From a virus: a DNA stretch of 64,000 bases. The translations under genes were made by a program, and so were the position numbers. Shown piece by piece: positions 20,448 through 61,712 of this stretch. Numbering within the stretch: the first letter of the stretch is position 1; every line of letters starts with the position of its first letter. The notes under the pieces were generated by a model. The model was given only the letters and a program-made list of their open reading frames with translations. It did not search any database and had not been told where the DNA came from. The stretch lies in the UHGV virus genome UHGV-0236300, one strand, 5' to 3'.

Positions 20448-20637
20448 GCTTAAATCTGCATGGAACATTGCTGTGGGTGATGAGATCCGCATCCCTGGTG
20501 GGAAGACCGTTATGAAGATATCTCGTATTGAATACGAAGGCGACCGTGTATTCCACATCTTTGCAGAAGATGGTCGGGAAATTTATGTACAAGCGGGCTC
20601 TCACATCTATATCCGTAAGAAAGGGGATGACAAATGA
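20434..20637 (+). CDS. hypothetical protein
   Basis: ORF overlapping its neighbours (coupled). Confidence 0.5.
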   Translation: MQMFKLKSAWNIAVGDEIRIPGGKTVMKISRIEYEGDRVFHIFAEDGREIYVQAGSHIYIRKKGDDK

Positions 20638-20963
20638 CAGAGATCATTATTTCAACTGCAGGGTATGTATTCCTGACAATCATTGCTCTGACCATTTTGG
20701 TGGCGGTATATGGATTTGTTATTCTACCTATTCTTGAGACAATTAGTTTGTGTCGGTGTTGGAGAAAGGCTTACGGTCCACAGCCGTGGAGGGACTGGCC
20801 CCACCTGGTTCGCATAGCGTTCTCTTATGCTTATGATCACGCCAGCAGTGCATGCATAACCGGGTATCACGCTCACAATTGGAACTGGGAGGGGTTGGGT
20901 AGATGGAATGTTATAAAGACCATACCTCTACGTATGCACAAGCCTAAAAACAAAGACAGTTGA
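20634..20963 (+). CDS. putative membrane protein
   Basis: N-terminal hydrophobic segment GYVFLTIIALTILVAVYGFVILPIL. Confidence 0.5.
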   Translation: MTEIIISTAGYVFLTIIALTILVAVYGFVILPILETISLCRCWRKAYGPQPWRDWPHLVRIAFSYAYDHASSACITGYHAHNWNWEGLGRWNVIKTIPLRMHKPKNKDS

Positions 20964-24337: not shown

Positions 24338-24362
24338 TAACACCATGAAAGGAGAAAGTAAC

Positions 24363-24716
24363 ATGATCAGCGGTGCAAGTTTTATCATTGGCGCTATTGC
24401 TACGGCTTTAATTGTAAACAAGATCCAGGATAAAAAGGAAAGAGGAAGCACCGCCCTTGCAGAATATCCATTTTGGGCATTCAACGATAACGAAGATTAT
24501 ATTATAAAGTATAAAAATAAAGAAGGTGACCAAGTAACACCGCGACCGATCCCGGCTTACAAGATGCAGGAAACACTATACCGCCTGGAGGCGGGGGGCG
24601 CAAAAATTGTGGACTTTTGGGGATACGATCACACAGATCAGGAAGTTATAAAGCGCCGTATCCGGGCTATTCAGGCCAATATTGAAGTTAGCAAGGGGGG
24701 AATATATGAAGATTAA
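24363..24716 (+). CDS. hypothetical protein with N-terminal transmembrane anchor
   Basis: Track ORF 24345..24716; ATG 24363 after SD AAAGGAGAAAG; N-terminal ISGASFIIGAIATALIV. Confidence 0.55.
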   Translation: MISGASFIIGAIATALIVNKIQDKKERGSTALAEYPFWAFNDNEDYIIKYKNKEGDQVTPRPIPAYKMQETLYRLEAGGAKIVDFWGYDHTDQEVIKRRIRAIQANIEVSKGGIYED

Positions 24717-25478: not shown

Positions 25479-26102
25479 ATGACCACCGTTAACATTACCA
25501 CAGGTTGCAATTTATCTTTCGACGTGCTGACCGACGAACAAAAAGAAAAAGCTATTGAAATGGTCCGCGAAAGAGAAGAACACAGCGGAGAGGATTTTTT
25601 CGCAGAAAGTGTAATTGAATATTATAAAGAACAAGTTTTTCCAGAGTACGGCCTTGAAGATACCGAAGTACATTGGTCCGGCTTTTGGTGCCAGGGTGAC
25701 GGCGCGTCAATCAGTGCTGAAAACGTGGATTTAGAAAAATTCTTGCGTAAAGTAAAGGCCCTGACCAAGTTCCGATCAATTCGTCACTTGTTCGGCACAA
25801 TGCACGATGGCGAGTTATCAGCCAGTATTGAACGCGACAAGTACAGCCATTACAGCCATGAAAACACTGTAAGCGGATACATTGATACCACCTGGCTAGA
25901 TCTGACCGCCAAACAAGAAAACAAAGTGGAAGACCTGGAAGAGCTGATCACCGAGACGGTACGGGAGCTATCCCGCAAGGTTTATGTAGACCTGGAGGAG
26001 TCCTATCTTGAACAGTTTACTACCGAAAACCTGATCGGCCTTATTGAAGCCAATGATTGGCGGTTTGATGTGGATGAATATGGTGAGATGAGTTTTTCAT
26101 AA
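25479..26102 (+). CDS. hypothetical protein
   Basis: ORF with SD AGGAGAAAA upstream; acidic; HWSGFWCQGDGA segment of unknown family. Confidence 0.6.
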   Translation: MTTVNITTGCNLSFDVLTDEQKEKAIEMVREREEHSGEDFFAESVIEYYKEQVFPEYGLEDTEVHWSGFWCQGDGASISAENVDLEKFLRKVKALTKFRSIRHLFGTMHDGELSASIERDKYSHYSHENTVSGYIDTTWLDLTAKQENKVEDLEELITETVRELSRKVYVDLEESYLEQFTTENLIGLIEANDWRFDVDEYGEMSFS

Positions 26103-26110
26103 ATAAAGTG

Positions 26111-26138
26111 TTGCAATAATCTAAAAACCTGCTATATT
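26111..26138 (+). promoter_or_regulatory. candidate sigma70 promoter (TTGCAA-N16-TATATT)
   Basis: Near-consensus hexamers upstream of gene 26158. Confidence 0.4.
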
Positions 26139-26157
26139 TAAAACTCAAGGGGGTGAG

Positions 26158-26457
26158 ATGACTTGCCTCCCACAAAACAAAGAGGAAAACATCATGAAAC
26201 GTCTTGACCAGCTCAAACTAGTTCAGTACATGGCTTACAGAATTCTTGAAGTCCAAAAAGGTAGCAAAAAAGAAGTTTGCGAGAAAGCGTACAAGATCTT
26301 TACTCGCAAAAAAGACGATTGGATGTTACGCCAGACCAAAAAAGCCGATATCTTGGGGTACCTGGAAGAAGAGATCCGGCTTGAAGAACAAGAAGAGATC
26401 CGCCGTAGTGAGGCAGATTATCAGGCAGCTTGGGAAAACTGGATGAGCAACAAATAA
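26158..26457 (+). CDS. hypothetical protein
   Basis: ORF with SD GGGGGTGAG upstream; alternative start at ATG 26194. Confidence 0.55.
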   Translation: MTCLPQNKEENIMKRLDQLKLVQYMAYRILEVQKGSKKEVCEKAYKIFTRKKDDWMLRQTKKADILGYLEEEIRLEEQEEIRRSEADYQAAWENWMSNK

Positions 26458-26523
26458 TACAACAGGTTGCATGGTCAGGGGCGATAAAGCCCCTTGATCA
26501 CATAAAAATTATGCTATCCCTTG

Positions 26524-26552
26524 TTGACAGGGATCGGCAGTTTTGCTATATT
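26524..26552 (+). promoter_or_regulatory. sigma70 promoter (TTGACA-N17-TATATT)
   Basis: Consensus -35 and near-consensus -10 upstream of gene 26602. Confidence 0.5.
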
Positions 26553-26601
26553 CTTTTTTGAAGGGAAGTTGTAAGAAAATTAACTAAGAGGTAAAAACAC
26601 C

Positions 26602-27021
26602 ATGAACATTAAATCTGATAATCCGGCATATAGCTTTGATAACGCTTTTTGTCACGGTCCGGCGGCGAAAGGATTCGAAATCGATGGTAAACTAATTATT
26701 GTCAATGTTGACGGGGAAGAGGTTGCAGTATATCCGGTGGCAGACGTTAAAAGCCGTCTACAATGCCGCATAGATGTTACCGCCTATCAGCTTGATCCGG
26801 TCCGGGTAGTTGCCCTGGTCCTGGAAGAAGAAATTAAAGCAATGCACCACAGCAACAAGTTTATTGGTGACGCTCAAGATAATATGCAGGTATGCCGCTA
26901 TAAAGTTAATGAAGTGCTTAAAGAGTACGGCTATAAGGATTTAATGATCAAGCGCGATGAAAAATTCCGCTACCGTAACGACCTGGCAAATCGGATTTTT
27001 GAAATATACGAATCATTATAA
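26602..27021 (+). CDS. hypothetical protein
   Basis: ORF with SD AAGAGGTAAAAA upstream; followed by a terminator. Confidence 0.6.
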   Translation: MNIKSDNPAYSFDNAFCHGPAAKGFEIDGKLIIVNVDGEEVAVYPVADVKSRLQCRIDVTAYQLDPVRVVALVLEEEIKAMHHSNKFIGDAQDNMQVCRYKVNEVLKEYGYKDLMIKRDEKFRYRNDLANRIFEIYESL

Positions 27022-31906: not shown

Positions 31907-32221
31907 TTATTTATCTTTGCCGTCAAGAACTTTTTTAAATCTCTCAGGAATATCTCCTGTTCTTAGATAGTTCATGACCTCACAAGGTTCCCACTTAAAC
32001 TTCTTGCACAGCAGAGCGGCTGAGATTGTCTCATTGCGAAAAGAAAGGATATCAATATCCCACTCTGAGAACCCTAATTTCCGAAGAGTGGCTATAGAAA
32101 TCCTCACAGCAACCCAACAAGAGAGGCACGCAACAAACGCCACTGCCACAACCCACACCAAGATGTTCATACAGCCCCTTAATGAAATACAAGACATAGT
32201 GCCAAGGTCACTATTCAGCAA
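31907..32221 (-). CDS. putative membrane protein
   Basis: Hydrophobic segment ILVWVVAVAFVACLSCWVAV. Confidence 0.45.
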   Translation of the reverse strand: MLNSDLGTMSCISLRGCMNILVWVVAVAFVACLSCWVAVRISIATLRKLGFSEWDIDILSFRNETISAALLCKKFKWEPCEVMNYLRTGDIPERFKKVLDGKDK

Positions 32222-37226: not shown

Positions 37227-37321
37227 AATTCAGCCTCGCATAGCCATAATAACTATAAACAGACAAAGAATGAATCCGAATGCCACGCCACCCATAAACG
37301 TTAATATTGATGCGACCATAA

Positions 37322-37507
37322 TCAATCAGCCTCGTTTGGCAGCTCTTCCATTTTGACATACCGGAAAGTGTTGCCGTAATAGTTGATCCATGACATCAGC
37401 TCACTTTCTTGCTCTTCCTCTGGGATGGACTCTCGAACGCTGACAAGTTTTAAGAAAACCCAATCACAATCCACCCCCATCCTACCAGACAGACAATAGT
37501 GCTTCAT
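37322..37507 (-). CDS. hypothetical protein
   Basis: Short ORF. Confidence 0.4.
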   Translation of the reverse strand: MKHYCLSGRMGVDCDWVFLKLVSVRESIPEEEQESELMSWINYYGNTFRYVKMEELPNEAD

Positions 37508-37720: not shown

Positions 37721-38004
37721 TTTCTAGTCCCCTTTTTAGATTTTTGTGCAGAAACGCTTTCTGCAATACGAGACAGGCGTTCTTCTGAAGCTTTACCTAC
37801 TCCAGGTTTCTTGAGCGGGCTATCTTTATGACCGCAATCCAATTGGATGCTAGATACATCCCCAACCTTGTAAGTCAATTCTAGCAAAAGGTTGTCGTCC
37901 TTGTCAAATGTTTTTACGATAAATTTTTTATCGTCCTCCTTAACTTCATATCTAGTACCTGCAGTGTACAGCATGGTGCCATCAGCGTAGGATATCCAGA
38001 TCAT
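37717..38004 (-). CDS. hypothetical protein
   Basis: ORF coupled to its neighbours. Confidence 0.45.
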   Translation of the reverse strand: MIWISYADGTMLYTAGTRYEVKEDDKKFIVKTFDKDDNLLLELTYKVGDVSSIQLDCGHKDSPLKKPGVGKASEERLSRIAESVSAQKSKKGTRK

Positions 38005-38321
38005 TGCACCTCCTTCTGCTGCAACAGCATCAACTCTTTGTTGGAAATCTTTACTGCTGTCTTTATTGTCCCATCTTCACGGAACCACGACCAGAATTCT
38101 ACAGTGTCACCACTATCAAGCAAGGCATGACCATGGTAAAAATCTTTGTCCTTAGACAGTTTCTCATCTATATCTGCATCGACACATTCGTGATCCATAG
38201 CATTCTGCCTGAATGCATCGGTTATGCCAATGCACGCCTTACTCTCAAGGCTGGTATACCCAATATCTTTTAATTCAGTTCCCAAGTCCAGTATCCTACA
38301 AAAGCTACAACAGCCACCCAC
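38001..38321 (-). CDS. hypothetical protein
   Basis: ORF with GTG start per track; start uncertain; a 26-codon hydrophobic mini-ORF overlaps the 5' end. Confidence 0.4.
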   Translation of the reverse strand: MGGCCSFCRILDLGTELKDIGYTSLESKACIGITDAFRQNAMDHECVDADIDEKLSKDKDFYHGHALLDSGDTVEFWSWFREDGTIKTAVKISNKELMLLQQKEVQ

Positions 38322-38407
38322 ATTAATATCGATTTAATCTTTGACATTCTCTCTACCTCTTTCTTAGTTTATTTAATTATGGCACATCCTTTGTGCCATA
38401 ATGCACA

Positions 38408-38869
38408 TTACTTAAACAACAGTTCAAAATAGTGCAAAATTAACAGAAGTTGAATTACGCCTAGCACAACGGCGAGTATGTTGATCTTAGAATCAAAAAA
38501 CTTCTTAACTTTTACCCTAAAAGGCTCCTTAATGTCCTTTACGATCCTATTTATAGATGATTTCATATCCCTGATTACCATCCTAAACATTAGGGACGGA
38601 TCTTCCTTCTCTGTAACGGAATCGAAAACATACTCTCTTCGGTCATAAGGACCTCCAGATCTGCGTATTAACCTCTCCACAGATACCTCGTACGACACAC
38701 CTGTAACGTAATCATCTATGACAAGTAGTGACGGATCTTTATCGTCCAAAGGTATTAAAGTTATCTTTCCAGATTTTGTTAAAATTTCTCCTTTTTCAAG
38801 CAGTGTGTACCAATGCTCTCTACCAAGGTTGTTGAGGCACGTTTTTACATATTTAACAAACATCGTCAC
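38408..38869 (-). CDS. hypothetical protein with C-terminal hydrophobic helix
   Basis: C-terminal ILAVVLGVIQLLLILHYF. Confidence 0.5.
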   Translation of the reverse strand: MTMFVKYVKTCLNNLGREHWYTLLEKGEILTKSGKITLIPLDDKDPSLLVIDDYVTGVSYEVSVERLIRRSGGPYDRREYVFDSVTEKEDPSLMFRMVIRDMKSSINRIVKDIKEPFRVKVKKFFDSKINILAVVLGVIQLLLILHYFELLFK

Positions 38870-39069
38870 CCCTCATCGCACGTCTGATATAGCCATTCTA
38901 TGAAATCTTGATACCACTCTCCCTCTGAGCGCTCCGTAGGCCAATAATCTTCCCCCTCTCTTGCATTAAAATCTGAGTATTCAACTTTCCACTCCTTTAC
39001 CAGCTCGTGGAGAAGGTTTTCAGCCTGTTCTAAGGATTTATTTTTTGTCATTACTGTCCCCTTTTTCAA
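38866..39069 (-). CDS. hypothetical protein
   Basis: Short ORF; likelier start at internal ATG (MTKNKSL) after SD AAAAGGGGA. Confidence 0.45.
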   Translation of the reverse strand: MKKGTVMTKNKSLEQAENLLHELVKEWKVEYSDFNAREGEDYWPTERSEGEWYQDFIEWLYQTCDEG

Positions 39070-39271
39070 GATAATTATACATCAGCGCCGCACCACCCAA
39101 AATGGCTACCAGCAGTAATACCCCAGAGAGCATTTCAATAAACATGGCTTGAAACATTAGAAGGCCCCCTCTAATTTCACGCACCATTTTAAATACATAT
39201 TCTTTTCCCATAAAGGTGCCCGGCTAAGATCTGTGTAGAACGCAATCTCTTTAAGAACAGTATAAACAGTT

Positions 39272-39508
39272 TTAGGTGCGGTATCCATCCCTACTCTCCT
39301 TTTTCTCCTTACGGGTATTCTTGTAGTAATCAACCAGACACATTATTACGATGAAGACAACCACAGGCCAAAAAGGTGCAGCAGTGATGATGGTGATAAA
39401 ATCATCAAACTTCACCCTTCGTGTAGACACGATGCATATACCTGTCAAGATTACTGCTGTTATAACAGCTACTACTAGGTAACCTATTAGCACAGCATTT
39501 ATACTCAT
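39272..39508 (-). CDS. small two-TM membrane protein with charged C-terminal tail (holin-like topology)
   Basis: Two hydrophobic segments (LIGYLVVAVITAVILTGICIV; ITAAPFWPVVVFIVIMCLV) and a Lys/Arg/Glu-rich C-terminus. Confidence 0.45.
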   Translation of the reverse strand: MSINAVLIGYLVVAVITAVILTGICIVSTRRVKFDDFITIITAAPFWPVVVFIVIMCLVDYYKNTRKEKKESRDGYRT

Positions 39509-39526
39509 TGGCTCCTCCTTCGTAGG

Positions 39527-40072
39527 TTAAATTGTGCACTTCAGGTGGTTGTCGATGGTGTCAAGAAAATTATCCCGTTCTTTCTCAGAGTTTTCACGGA
39601 TGTAGCTGAAAAACATATCTAGAATAACCTTATTGATATATTCCAACTCCTCTGTGTTCAAGTACTTAGCAGGATCTACAATGACATCCCAAGTATCATA
39701 CAGACCGCACTCATGATACCCCCAACGCCGCTCAATTGTCAAACTGATCGGCAAATCTTTACCGTCACAAACAACCCTCCATCTACAGATACTGGTATCT
39801 GGGCGTACCTGTGCACGGTATACCTGTACAAAATCCAATTTGAATTTGAGGTACTCGTCATACAATTTAAGCACAAAGCTCTCGATTTGTGGAGACACTT
39901 TTGCAGCAAACTGTGCGTATTTGTACTTGCACTGGATGATCTTTCTGCGTTTTGCAGTTAAATTTTTTGCAGCCAGTTGTTCTTCAGTGTACCTCCACCT
40001 ACGATCAACAAACGCAACAGGGTCTTTGTCCCCATAGAGGTCTTCCCAGTTAATCAGAAGCATACCTGTCAC
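39527..40072 (-). CDS. hypothetical protein
   Basis: ORF; no motif. Confidence 0.55.
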   Translation of the reverse strand: MTGMLLINWEDLYGDKDPVAFVDRRWRYTEEQLAAKNLTAKRRKIIQCKYKYAQFAAKVSPQIESFVLKLYDEYLKFKLDFVQVYRAQVRPDTSICRWRVVCDGKDLPISLTIERRWGYHECGLYDTWDVIVDPAKYLNTEELEYINKVILDMFFSYIRENSEKERDNFLDTIDNHLKCTI

Positions 40073-40302
40073 TCCTCCACAACTTCAAGGCCTTTACCGC
40101 CTCGCTCTGGCAGATTGCCTAAAGATAGGTAATACGTATAATCAGGAGAGATCCTACCAGACTCTGCACCTGCAGCTAGTAAATATTTTCCCTTAACCAT
40201 GACAACATTATCGTTTGCAGATAGCCGTTTTGCTTCCACAATTTTACCAACGCAGTCAACCAAGGAAGGGTACCCTAAATCTGTAAGAAATTTAACTTTC
40301 AT
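40069..40302 (-). CDS. hypothetical protein (paralog family A)
   Basis: MKVKFLTD... and KYLLAAGAESG resemble family A. Confidence 0.55.
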   Translation of the reverse strand: MKVKFLTDLGYPSLVDCVGKIVEAKRLSANDNVVMVKGKYLLAAGAESGRISPDYTYYLSLGNLPERGGKGLEVVEE

Positions 40303-60847: not shown

Positions 60848-61054
60848 TCATTCAAAGAAATGGGTGCGAGGGCAGGAACCTGCCTCGCCTTGTTTCACAA
60901 GCTCGTAGAGCTCACCTTGGCTTGTCTCATAAAGGCAAATACGTTTACCATTGTCCCGATATACATCCACAAGATACGCTGTTTCACCTGCAAACACGAC
61001 ACCACAGGCAAGGCATGCTGCCATGAACAAAATTGCCAACAGAAAATCTTTCAT
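60848..61054 (-). CDS. small secreted or lipoprotein-like Cys-containing protein
   Basis: N-terminal signal-like FLLAILFMAACLACGVVFAG; immediately downstream of the endolysin. Confidence 0.5.
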   Translation of the reverse strand: MKDFLLAILFMAACLACGVVFAGETAYLVDVYRDNGKRICLYETSQGELYELVKQGEAGSCPRTHFFE

Positions 61055-61117
61055 GGTTAAACCCTCTTGAGTACTTTATGAGGTAACAATACCACATCCA
61101 TGTGGTCATGTCAATGA

Positions 61118-61588
61118 CTAATCTAGGACAACACCGCCTGACTTTTTAAACACCTCGATCAACTTTTCGATCTTCTGTTCGTGCTGACCATACCCTGCAC
61201 CAGGAAGGCTTGCCCATCGGGATCTGCAAAGATGGATGGCCTGATGAATACGACCTTCATCAATATCATCGAGCGCCTTGCACTCACGGATCAATTGTAG
61301 TGCGATCTTATCCTGACTGGCAGGGCCAAAATCTGGTAATCCTAACTGTTTCATATAGTGTTTAGCAAACTTCTCCAAAACTTGGTAGCGACCCGCAGCA
61401 GAGGAGGTAAGTTTAGCATTTAGCTTAACGTACACACCTGGATGCTTACTGTAATCGCTAAACAGCTTGCCACCGACTATGACATCATAGCCACGATCCT
61501 TGGTAGGTTGTCTACCATTATCTGTGCCTTCTGAATATGCGATCATATCCAAGAAAGCTTTTCGTTGAACATTTTTATCAAGTTTCAT
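61118..61588 (-). CDS. endolysin, lambda R-like lytic transglycosylase
   Basis: NVQRKAFLDMIAYSEGTDNGRQPTKDRGYDVIVGG...GRYQVL...WASLPGAGYGQHE is near-collinear with lambda R, including the catalytic Glu in SEGTD. Confidence 0.9.
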   Translation of the reverse strand: MKLDKNVQRKAFLDMIAYSEGTDNGRQPTKDRGYDVIVGGKLFSDYSKHPGVYVKLNAKLTSSAAGRYQVLEKFAKHYMKQLGLPDFGPASQDKIALQLIRECKALDDIDEGRIHQAIHLCRSRWASLPGAGYGQHEQKIEKLIEVFKKSGGVVLD

Positions 61589-61712
61589 TTTTCATACTCT
61601 CCAGTTTACTCATAACTAACCAGATCAACAACACTGCATAATGTGGTTATGCAGGGGCCAATTGAAAAACCATCATTCAATTGGCTACCGTTATCTACTG
61701 AACATCCCTACA

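Follow-up and report, generated by a model that had tools for sequence, protein, structure and literature searches.

The 78-residue two-helix membrane protein of the Vequintavirus ORF128–ORF134 block, a known holin candidate, and its alternatives

The ORF128–ORF134 block

The DNA analysed here, a stretch of 64,000 nucleotides referred to as the window, is a contig of Vequintavirus, i.e., of an rV5-like E. coli myophage. Its region 38001–40063 is the Vequintavirus ORF128–ORF134 block, a conserved series of small genes that includes four for inner-membrane proteins. The block is collinear with rV5, LL12, WM, EmilHeitz, B9-1, ECP26 and FV3, as well as with a divergent metagenomic contig (ClpP ... 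ORF128, ORF129, ORF130–134). Transmembrane (TM) proteins are encoded by four of six consecutive genes (129, 131, 133 and 134), a clustering modestly above chance (permutation P 0.02–0.04). All genes of the block discussed below lie on the minus strand.

Several products of this block have been annotated in phage rV5. Kropinski et al. (2013, Virol J 10:76; PMC3606486) called rV5 ORF129 a “putative holin, separated from the lysin as in T4”, and their Table S3 labels ORF129 “putative holin, 2 TMD”, ORF131 “membrane protein”, ORF133 “structural protein, 1 TMD” and ORF134 “membrane protein”. Among the rV5 proteins, only gp129 was given two TM domains (TMDs) by both TMHMM and Phobius (PMC3606486). 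The holin reading of the 78-residue gene is thus a hypothesis already known since 2013 and an in silico proposal. Searching the literature for transcriptomes of Vequintavirus or for experiments on its holin yielded nothing.

The ORF128 homologue (39527–40063) encodes a soluble protein of 178 residues, which belongs to phrog_13467, a family without assigned function. Neither Pfam, PDB, NCBIfam nor PADLOC yielded a match (the best PADLOC hit, REase_II with an E of 0.012, is insignificant), and a search of 5.8 billion proteins returned two clusters only. PDB, Pfam and NCBIfam lend no support to the label “putative glycosidase”, which ORF128 bears in some records, and the homologues are too few for a useful model.

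Downstream of the 78-residue gene follow five further small genes. The preliminary description regarded the small ORFs of this neighbourhood as unannotated and hydrophobic. Their rV5 homologues, ORFs 130–134, are, however, annotated (Table S3), and hydrophobicity applies to one of the two ORFs in question: the ORF131 homologue (39038–39157; phrog_15251) encodes a 39-residue peptide with a single TM segment according to hydropathy, while the 43-residue product of the ORF130 homologue (39157–39288; phrog_16157) contains no hydrophobic segment. The overlapping stop and start codons described earlier are indeed present, since a TAATG joins ORF130 to ORF131 at 39157, and ORF129 and ORF130 overlap by 17 nt. 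ORF130 comprises 43 residues in the window versus 50 in rV5 and ECP26, a length set by a G5/G4 homopolymer run at ~39170, and its dN/dS of ~0.8 derives from very few sites. ORF131 is strongly constrained (dN/dS 0.03 at a dS of 0.8) and 100% identical to its FV3 counterpart. The ORF132 homologue (38866–39051; phrog_8789; dN/dS 0.02) encodes an acidic soluble protein of 61 residues; its homologues come after a two-TM gene in Mydovirus and Seunavirus (similar proteins at L005 2531–2707 and L006 2525–2695).

The ORF133 homologue (~38408–38869; phrog_7821) encodes a protein of ~151–153 residues with a C-terminal TM anchor, a gene that the earlier description of the cluster had omitted. Mass spectrometry detected gp133 in rV5 virions as “one of the predominant proteins” (PMC3606486), and the homologue gp170 of PVP-SE1 is annotated as a virion protein. 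An AlphaFold (AF2) model of ORF133 (pLDDT 74) matched its own family only upon Foldseek searches of PDB and BFVD. Finally, the ORF134 homologue (38001–38347), which in relatives encodes 115 residues and comprises an acidic domain as well as a TM segment at the N-terminus, is split by a 1-nt deletion at ~38279 into an N-terminal TM part (38270–38347) and a remainder (38001–38321), as revealed by alignment and by the list of indels versus B9-1 and ECP26. The deletion is absent from rV5, LL12, WM, EmilHeitz, B9-1 and ECP26, and the phrog_11867 match covers profile positions 21–115 only. What had been taken for a separate mini-ORF of 26 codons (38270–38347) is therefore no gene of its own, being the first 25 codons of the interrupted ORF134 homologue.

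The 78-residue two-helix protein

The gene at 39272–39508 is the orthologue of rV5 ORF129 (RefSeq rv5_gp124, YP_002003626; 87% identity to rV5 94058–94294). As judged from the ORF, hydropathy and the match to phrog_10061 (E 9.7e-38, residues 1–75), its product is a real inner-membrane protein with two predicted TMDs and a basic C-terminal tail, published as the candidate “putative holin”. Hydrophobic segments span residues ~3–27 and ~38–59 (Kyte-Doolittle, 19-residue window), with peaks of 2.66 and 2.49, respectively, and TMD1 is rich in I, L and V. The connecting loop, STRRVKFDDF, carries three K/R, and the tail (residues 60–78) combines seven K/R with four D/E. By the positive-inside rule, these charges (seven K/R in the tail, three in the loop) would favour an N-in/C-in orientation. 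The AF2 model is a helical hairpin of low confidence (pLDDT 67; helices 2–29, 34–43 and 46–75). The two TM helices and the charged C-terminus noted in the preliminary description are thus borne out by hydropathy, charge count and model alike.

A strong Shine-Dalgarno sequence, AAGGAGG, lies 5 nt upstream of the ATG (AAGGAGGA at 39513–39520 on the minus strand, by direct sequence reading), at the place where a ribosome-binding site is annotated in LL12; the gene is therefore probably well translated. Since just 18 nt separate ORF129 from ORF128, the two are probably co-transcribed. Consensus promoter scans gave a sigma70-like site at 39742–39713 and an extended -10 at 40249–40240, and the search for the rV5 “late promoter” motif gave the extended -10 TGGTAAAAT inside ORF127, the conservation of which is inseparable from coding constraint. 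Inspection of the sequence for a dual-start motif in the 78-residue gene found none.

The gene is near-universal in Vequintavirus, where it was found in 116 phage records, and all 26 clusters retrieved with the protein from 5.8 billion proteins belong to this genus. A divergent metagenomic relative (33% identity) keeps the gene at the same position. To these, a profile search of 1.84 billion representatives could add no more than three small proteins, none of them named. At the syntenic site of Seunavirus, a two-TM protein (PVP-SE1 gp167 family) is non-homologous to the 78-residue family (hhalign probability 0.4%), whereas a 71-residue family of Mydovirus and phage Av-05 reaches an hhalign probability of 67%. 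These comparisons are suggestive of the 71-residue proteins of Mydovirus and Avunavirus being remote relatives, and their PHROGs category reads [quoted passage not shown]. A muralytic enzyme beside a sister-genus relative was considered and rejected, the neighbouring “hydrolase” being PTH2-like.

The 78-residue gene is under purifying selection (dN/dS 0.40 versus rV5 and 0.14 versus FV3), yet its value of 0.40 compares with 0.01–0.1 for neighbouring genes. ORF129 and ORF128 diverge together from FV3 (54% and 50% identity, respectively), while the flanks remain 95–100% identical, and recombinants are seen inside the 78-residue gene. By sequence comparison, ORF128 and ORF129 form a fast-diverging cassette of two genes and two alleles; such fast, cassette-like divergence is typical of host-interaction or exclusion genes.

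Endolysin and layout of the lysis genes

The endolysin gene (61118–61588, minus strand) encodes a soluble lambda-R-type enzyme (PDB 1am7 and 3d3d at E ~3e-56; phrog_90 endolysin). Hydropathy analysis found neither a signal or SAR sequence nor any hydrophobic segment, and the distance to the 78-residue gene is 21.6 kb; the earlier view of a lambda R homologue lacking a signal peptide and located ~22 kb away thus stands (PDB 1am7, E 3e-56). Because the endolysin has no export signal, a holin is required, and none is recognised outside the 78-residue candidate. According to the CPT annotation group there is no identifiable holin. The spanin genes adjoin the terminase in relatives. A dispersal of the lysis genes, as had been proposed, agrees with this layout and is already published (endolysin among replication genes, spanins by the terminase, no assigned holin).

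The statement that no holin adjoins the endolysin calls for a refinement: nothing recognisable as a holin is found there, but the ORF90 homologue (60848–61054, minus strand), whose 68-residue product begins with a hydrophobic stretch (signal or anchor) and ends in an acidic tail with two Cys, lies directly downstream of the endolysin gene and has its own sigma70-like promoter. ORF90 is at least 95% identical in 120 records. In SSBI34 and ChuuTotoro its homologues are flanked by ligase and exonuclease genes, and an endolysin gene is lacking from this neighbourhood. ORF90 is therefore unlikely to be a hidden holin beside the endolysin, and it is probably not a lysis gene.

Public records contain a second candidate. 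The rV5 ORF183 family, chosen by the BASEL curators instead of ORF129, bears the label “putative holin” in at least 10 records (e.g., bas49_0116, phage EmilHeitz) and occurs in 119 records with a conservation of at least 94%. What is new here is that this candidate belongs to a 4.6-kb block which the window has cleanly lost. The deletion of 4,614 bp, the junction of which falls within a direct repeat of 21 nt located at the RBS/ATG of two genes (26179–26199, plus strand), removes 14 small genes including ORF183; tblastn gave no match to the family in the window, and the 132.5-kb source contig shows the same gene order at the deletion. If the phage of the window replicates, both ORF183 and the frameshifted ORF134 are dispensable. 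The 78-residue gene was retained in the contig that lost these 14 genes.

The 78-residue protein as a candidate holin

The holin reading starts from the gene, its topology-type features and its conservation, together with the dispersed layout of the lysis genes, all of which are shown. It is topologically reasonable and agrees with the published in silico proposal for rV5 gp129. The size, the two very hydrophobic TMDs, the short loop and the tail with seven K/R fit a class II holin, and the 78-residue product is the best single candidate; holin is its most likely specific function, an assignment that we hold tentatively. Our analyses neither confirm nor exclude holin function.

A canonical large-hole class-II-type holin of this kind would be expressed late and accumulate in the inner membrane with both its N- and C-termini in the cytoplasm, as predicted by the positive-inside rule. 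Its timed opening of holes would release the soluble endolysin encoded 21.6 kb away, and the spanins would be provided from a third locus beside the terminase. As the partner endolysin is soluble and not of the SAR type, the holin would have to be of the large-hole kind. The features of a pinholin/SAR-endolysin pair were not found: TMD1 is strongly hydrophobic (peak KD ~2.7–3.0), and the endolysin has no hydrophobic N-terminus. Late expression is plausible, because the same block encodes ORF133 and ORF137, both found in virions. Moreover, the endolysin gene, located among replication genes, shares a long leftward unit with the 78-residue gene, and hence the “early-looking” location of the latter is no argument against a role in lysis.

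Several results bear in the other direction. Searches of Pfam, NCBIfam and PHROGs matched the protein to no holin family, and a Foldseek search of BFVD with its AF2 model (pLDDT 67) gave nothing with an E below 0.4. In Vequintavirus and in the related and sister genera examined, the gene never lies beside an endolysin or spanin gene. Two expert annotation groups did not adopt ORF129 as the holin, CPT seeing no identifiable holin and the BASEL curators settling on ORF183. Phage accessory proteins commonly include small two-TM proteins with a basic tail (e.g., T4 Imm), and the same topology heuristic would have missed the holin of T4.

Alternative functions

The 78-residue product may instead be an accessory inner-membrane protein without a role in lysis that acts, perhaps jointly with the co-varying cytoplasmic protein ORF128, in superinfection exclusion, host takeover or counter-defence; the real holin would then be another small TM protein. 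Such a protein could, for example, block DNA entry of competing phages or alter membrane energetics. We regard this as possible, if short of probable. The allelic ORF128/ORF129 cassette with its sharp drops in identity and intragenic recombinants, and the raised dN/dS relative to neighbouring genes, fit an exclusion or membrane-acting accessory function at least as well as a holin. Further points in its favour are the location in a long array of small genes without assigned functions, the confinement of the family to one genus, the lack of linkage to lysis genes anywhere and the takeover-type PHROG label of the probable remote relatives. On the other hand, exclusion or defence families gave no match (the best PADLOC hit of ORF129, PycTM with an E of 0.018, is not significant), PHROGs assigns the protein only to phrog_10061, a family without assigned function, and the gene, unlike many exclusion morons, is near-universal in its genus and was kept in a contig stripped of 14 other small genes.

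It is unlikely that the holin is encoded by one of five other genes, namely rV5 ORF183, ORF200, ORF190, ORF90 or ORF31, with ORF129 serving a different purpose. ORF183 (123 residues, two N-terminal TMDs) has the BASEL label and its conservation to recommend it, but is deleted from the window; its loss weakens this rival, and ORF129 is therefore modestly favoured by elimination. ORF90 adjoins the endolysin gene and is well conserved, but its homologues keep their position in genera with no endolysin there, and the acidic two-Cys tail looks periplasmic. The ORF200 homologue (20634–20963) begins with ~38 residues of hydrophobic character and ends in a basic C-terminus; the ORF190 homologue lies at 24345–24716. 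In T4, gene t follows gene 38, and ORF31, located outside the window in the late tail-fibre operon, likewise comes after a tail-fibre chaperone gene, but resembles a TMD plus coiled coil and is thus spanin-like. None of these candidates matches a holin family. With ORF128–134, ORF90 and the remaining TM candidates, searches of Pfam, NCBIfam, PHROGs and PADLOC yielded families without assigned function only.

A bolder proposal, which we consider quite improbable, is that ORF128 and ORF129 together form a new diversifying module composed of a cytoplasmic protein and a two-TM membrane effector. Such a module might serve superinfection exclusion or counter-defence; alternatively, it might represent a novel holin family timed by ORF128 or ORF131. 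In the latter case, lysis in Vequintavirus would draw on four unlinked loci (holin, endolysin, spanins and rIIA/B).

Least likely is a membrane module for virion assembly or a virion-borne membrane protein, in which the 78- and 39-residue proteins and the products of ORF132–134 would cooperate, the small TM proteins helping to insert, hold or release ORF133 at the inner membrane: a two-TM protein, an acidic ORF132-like protein and an ORF133 homologue succeed one another in this order in Vequintavirus, Mydovirus, Seunavirus and Henunavirus, ORF133 is present in rV5 virions and annotated as a virion protein in PVP-SE1, the TM genes are clustered beyond chance and ORF131, ORF132 and ORF133 are strongly constrained (dN/dS 0.02–0.1), but no homology to the 78-residue family is detectable for the two-TM proteins at this site in other genera, shared gene order counts little since the whole subfamily is broadly syntenic, ORF134 is broken in the window, ORF133 has no recognisable fold and virion preparations can be contaminated by membrane proteins.

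Implications

Vequintaviruses rank among the E. coli phages most often isolated, and they serve in cocktails for therapy and biocontrol. The holin sets the timing of lysis, and public records hold two incompatible candidates for Vequintavirus, rV5 ORF129 and the ORF183 family (BASEL). The holin finding itself adds nothing past the 2013 annotation; a contig that kept ORF129 and cleanly lost ORF183 makes it cheap to decide which of the two should be tested first.

Comparison with known systems

Superinfection immunity proteins of the T4 Imm type are small, have two predicted TMDs and are encoded by an early gene. The 78-residue protein resembles T4 Imm in its comparable size, predicted two-TM topology, place among small accessory genes and fast evolution. 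This resemblance is topological only, and the PHROG search gave just phrog_10061.

Class II holins such as S21 of the lambdoid phage 21 share with the 78-residue protein a length of ~70–80 residues, two TMDs and a charged C-tail, which the predicted N-in/C-in orientation would place in the cytoplasm. Yet the two show no similarity in sequence or profile, and the 78-residue TMD1 is strongly hydrophobic and not SAR-like. The 78-residue gene also differs in having neither a dual-start motif nor a lysis cassette.

Within the same subfamily, gp82 of Pectobacterium phage CB7 is the candidate class II holin of Certrevirus (~65 residues, two TMDs), and its gene overlaps that of a SleB-like cell-wall hydrolase (PMC7344957). 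It was picked by the same logic, because a lysis cassette is absent. Through this overlap CB7 gp82 has at least positional support, while the 78-residue gene has no muralytic neighbour.

The BASEL candidate bas49_0116 (rV5 ORF183) is likewise a small protein of the Vequintavirus inner membrane, in which two TMDs are combined with a hydrophilic tail, and it too was put forward as a holin from topology alone. It is unrelated to the 78-residue protein (phrog_13090; 123 residues), is encoded in the rightward small-gene array and is absent from the window.

The closest counterpart is rV5 gp129 itself, which likewise comprises 78 residues, is 87% identical and occupies the same slot between ORF128 and ORF130. 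Both TMDs and the tail rich in K/R are shared, and the same reasoning has led to a putative holin apart from the lysin. Nothing of substance separates the two: the window has another mix of alleles, and its ORF134 neighbour is frameshifted.

A putative holin in a retained gene block

The gene at 39272-39508 (minus strand) of this rV5-like Escherichia coli myophage encodes a 78-residue protein, the homologue of rV5 ORF129. In agreement with the preliminary description, the reading frame is real and its product comprises two strongly hydrophobic stretches (approximately residues 3-27 and 38-59) and a highly charged C-terminus, a 19-residue tail with seven K/R and four D/E. The hydrophobic stretches are separated by a loop of ten residues (STRRVKFDDF), and an AlphaFold model based on 14 homologues places helices at residues 2-29, 34-43 and 46-75, with only moderate confidence (pLDDT 67). 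A strong Shine-Dalgarno sequence (AAGGAGG) lies 5' of the ATG, and the gene is under purifying selection (dN/dS 0.40 versus rV5 and 0.14 versus FV3).

The protein matches phrog_10061 (E 1e-37), and searches of Pfam, NCBIfam, PHROGs and PADLOC returned neither a holin family nor any named family. Its own family is narrow: all 116 phage records belong to Vequintavirus, 26 clusters are found among 5.8 billion proteins, and among 1.84 billion representatives, profile searching yielded only three further, unnamed proteins of 72-75 aa. One of these (33% identity) stems from a divergent metagenomic relative, which keeps the whole order ClpP ... 128, 129, 130, 131, 132, 133, 134; the ORF128-ORF134 block is therefore old and retained. 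The conserved core of the family spans the loop and the first part of TM2 (KFDDFITIITAAPFWPVV). For TM1 and for the tail there are alternative alleles, which recombine and are mixed in intragenic ORF129 recombinants.

The 6 kb around the gene share 98.5% identity with two Escherichia phages, B9-1 and ECP26, and about 91% with rV5 and LL12, and match 120 records, nearly all of the genus Vequintavirus. Every gene in the cluster 38001-39508 is on the minus strand. The window appears to be metagenome-assembled rather than derived from a cultured isolate, and gene losses in it thus represent population variants.

The holin interpretation is already published and twelve years old, and it is still a putative assignment. 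When Kropinski et al. 2013 (PMC3606486) looked for holin candidates among the rV5 proteins by TMHMM and Phobius, the sole qualifier was gp129, with 78 residues, two TMDs and a Lys/Arg-rich C-terminus. A literature search for holin experiments or a transcriptome in Vequintavirus found none. Added here are corrections to the preliminary description, a conflict between two database holin annotations and a natural deletion, which helps to choose between ORF129 and ORF183. Given its canonical features, its genus-wide presence and the loss of its main rival, the 78-residue protein is the best single holin candidate, and its identification as the holin is proposed tentatively.

The competing ORF183 annotation and a natural deletion

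In the curated BASEL genomes the ORF129 orthologue is not labelled a holin; the “putative holin” is bas49_0116 (EmilHeitz 88483-88854), and its orthologues carry this label in at least nine further Bas phages. This gene corresponds to rV5 ORF183 and codes for 123 aa, with two TMDs at the N-terminus and a tail of 75 aa, and its family is conserved at 94% or above across 119 records. A search of the 64-kb window for ORF183 gave zero matches. Mapped against B9-1, the window cleanly lacks 4,614 bp and with them 14 small genes, the ORF183 family among them; in rV5 these correspond to about ORFs 166-184. The junction, at 26179-26199 (plus strand; affected region 25479-27021), falls within a direct repeat of 21 nt, AAAGAGGAnAACATCATGAAA, made up of the ribosome-binding site and start codon of each of two genes, and the block missing there is kept by nearly all relatives.

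The deletion appears to be real: assembly at k=141 should not collapse a repeat of 21 nt. The 132,554-bp metagenomic contig ENA ERZ27264784 k141_18095, the apparent source of the window, has the same structure and unusual gene order, and the variant was probably abundant enough to replicate; sister contigs with an identical neighbouring protein retain the block. If the variant replicates, it can do without both ORF183 and the frameshifted ORF134, and ORF183 could not be the only holin; this argument is indirect, and the search behind it covered 64 of the contig's 132.5 kb.

The ORF128-ORF129 cassette

Protein identity to FV3 falls to 50% for ORF128, 54% for ORF129 and 72% for ORF130, compared to 95-100% for the flanking genes. 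Accordingly, ORF128 (39527-40063, minus strand, 178 aa) and ORF129 form a swapped, allelic two-gene cassette at 39272-40063 (minus strand), and ORF129 has the highest well-supported dN/dS of the block. Such fast, cassette-like divergence suits host-interaction or exclusion genes; holins themselves are also diverse. The 78-residue protein may, with some reserve, be regarded as a membrane-acting accessory or exclusion protein with ORF128 as its partner. For ORF128, neither a recognisable family nor a solved relative was found in PDB, NCBIfam or the 5.8-billion-protein search, and the label “putative glycosidase” in some records is unsupported.

Other holin candidates

That a different named gene encodes the holin is unlikely, and would be compatible with either an accessory/exclusion or a virion-associated role of ORF129. 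Directly downstream of the endolysin, the ORF90 homologue (60848-61054, minus strand, 68 aa) is hydrophobic at its N-terminus, FLLAILFMAACLACGVVFAG, and acidic in its tail, which contains two Cys; the gene has a sigma70-like promoter to itself (TTGACA-N17-GTATTG, ~61085-61113). It is at least 95% identical across 120 records, far above the conservation of the 78-residue protein. The SSBI34 and ChuuTotoro homologues occupy the same ligase/exonuclease slot with no endolysin nearby, and hence the adjacency is probably incidental. Further small ORFs with hydrophobic segments are the homologues of ORF200 (20634-20963) and ORF190 (24345-24716) on the plus strand, and, on the minus strand, the ORF155 homologue (31907-32221) and a 31-aa peptide annotated in EmilHeitz (37230-37325). 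The 109-aa ORF200 homologue, hydrophobic over its first ~38 residues and basic at its C-terminal end, is another holin-like candidate. In rV5 ORF31, which belongs to the late tail-fibre operon, a coiled coil follows a TMD. ORF90, ORF200, ORF190, ORF155 and ORF31 gave zero matches to holin families; apart from ORF90, each is a possible holin.

Neighbouring small genes

The small ORFs nearby, described as unannotated, are all listed in rV5, and their overlapping stop and start codons are as described. Their supposed hydrophobicity holds for the 39-aa ORF at 39038-39157 (phrog_15251, single TM, strongly constrained at dN/dS 0.03) and fails for the 43-aa ORF at 39157-39288. In the latter, ORF130, a G5/G4 homopolymer run at ~39170 sets the length at either 43 or 50 aa, depending on the isolate. 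At ~40983, in the ORF125 RBS region, the window has a plus-strand run of seven C, B9-1 one fewer and ECP26 two fewer; homopolymer-length polymorphisms at both sites thus occur between close relatives.

A presumed 26-codon mini-ORF turned out to be part of the ORF134 homologue (115 aa; 38270-38347 plus 38001-38321, minus strand): it encodes the membrane segment at the N-terminus, which is severed because a short homopolymer at ~38279 lacks one base. ORF134 is intact in six relatives, rV5, LL12, WM, EmilHeitz and the two closest, B9-1 and ECP26. The preliminary description also lacked the ORF133 homologue at 38408-38863. The gap between ORF133 and ORF134 contains a perfect hairpin with an 8-bp stem (38379-38399, ATGGCACA-N5-TGTGCCAT) and no subsequent T-run; the stem is invariant across five phages, and the hairpin may serve in RNA processing or RNA stability.

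Counterparts in sister genera and dispersed lysis genes

Four of six consecutive genes in the ORF129-ORF134 block encode TM proteins, a modestly non-random clustering (permutation P 0.02-0.04, drawing on rV5's own TM list). Homologues of the virion protein ORF133 occur in Mydovirus, Seunavirus and Henunavirus, preceded 5' by a ~70-aa 2-TM protein (PVP-SE1 gp167, 2001-2213 of its locus) and an acidic ORF132-like protein, and hhalign detected no relationship of the gp167 family to the 78-residue family (probability 0.4%). A membrane module tied to ORF133 is an improbable setting for the 78-residue protein.

Mydovirus has two distinct ~70-aa 2-TM proteins (173-388 and 2332-2544 of its locus), and the one unrelated to the 78-residue family takes the syntenic position, upstream of the homologues of ORF132 and ORF133. 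The other belongs to a second 2-TM family, of 71 aa, which occurs in Mydovirus and Avunavirus and has a possible relationship to the 78-residue family, judging from profile and pairwise comparison (hhalign probability 67%, pairwise E 5e-5). This second family adjoins a PTH2-like hydrolase rather than a cell-wall enzyme, and its PHROGs category is host takeover. As these relatives and neighbours keep no company with lysis genes, they provide no guilt-by-association with lysis.

The endolysin (61118-61588) is, as proposed, a lambda R homologue (PDB 1am7, E 3e-56) whose N-terminus is not hydrophobic. In the 124 nt 5' of it (61589-61712, minus strand), where no sigma70 promoter is evident, there is a pair of hairpins, CCAATTGA...TCAATTGG and TGCATAA...TTATGCA; this region may regulate the timing of endolysin expression. 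The dispersal of lysis genes, also suggested earlier, is already on record for LL12 and other Vequintavirinae: the LL12 announcement, from the Center for Phage Technology, names the endolysin and places the i- and o-spanins next to the terminase, and the papers on CB7, KPP-1, BME3 and phiSalP219 give much the same lysis-gene picture.
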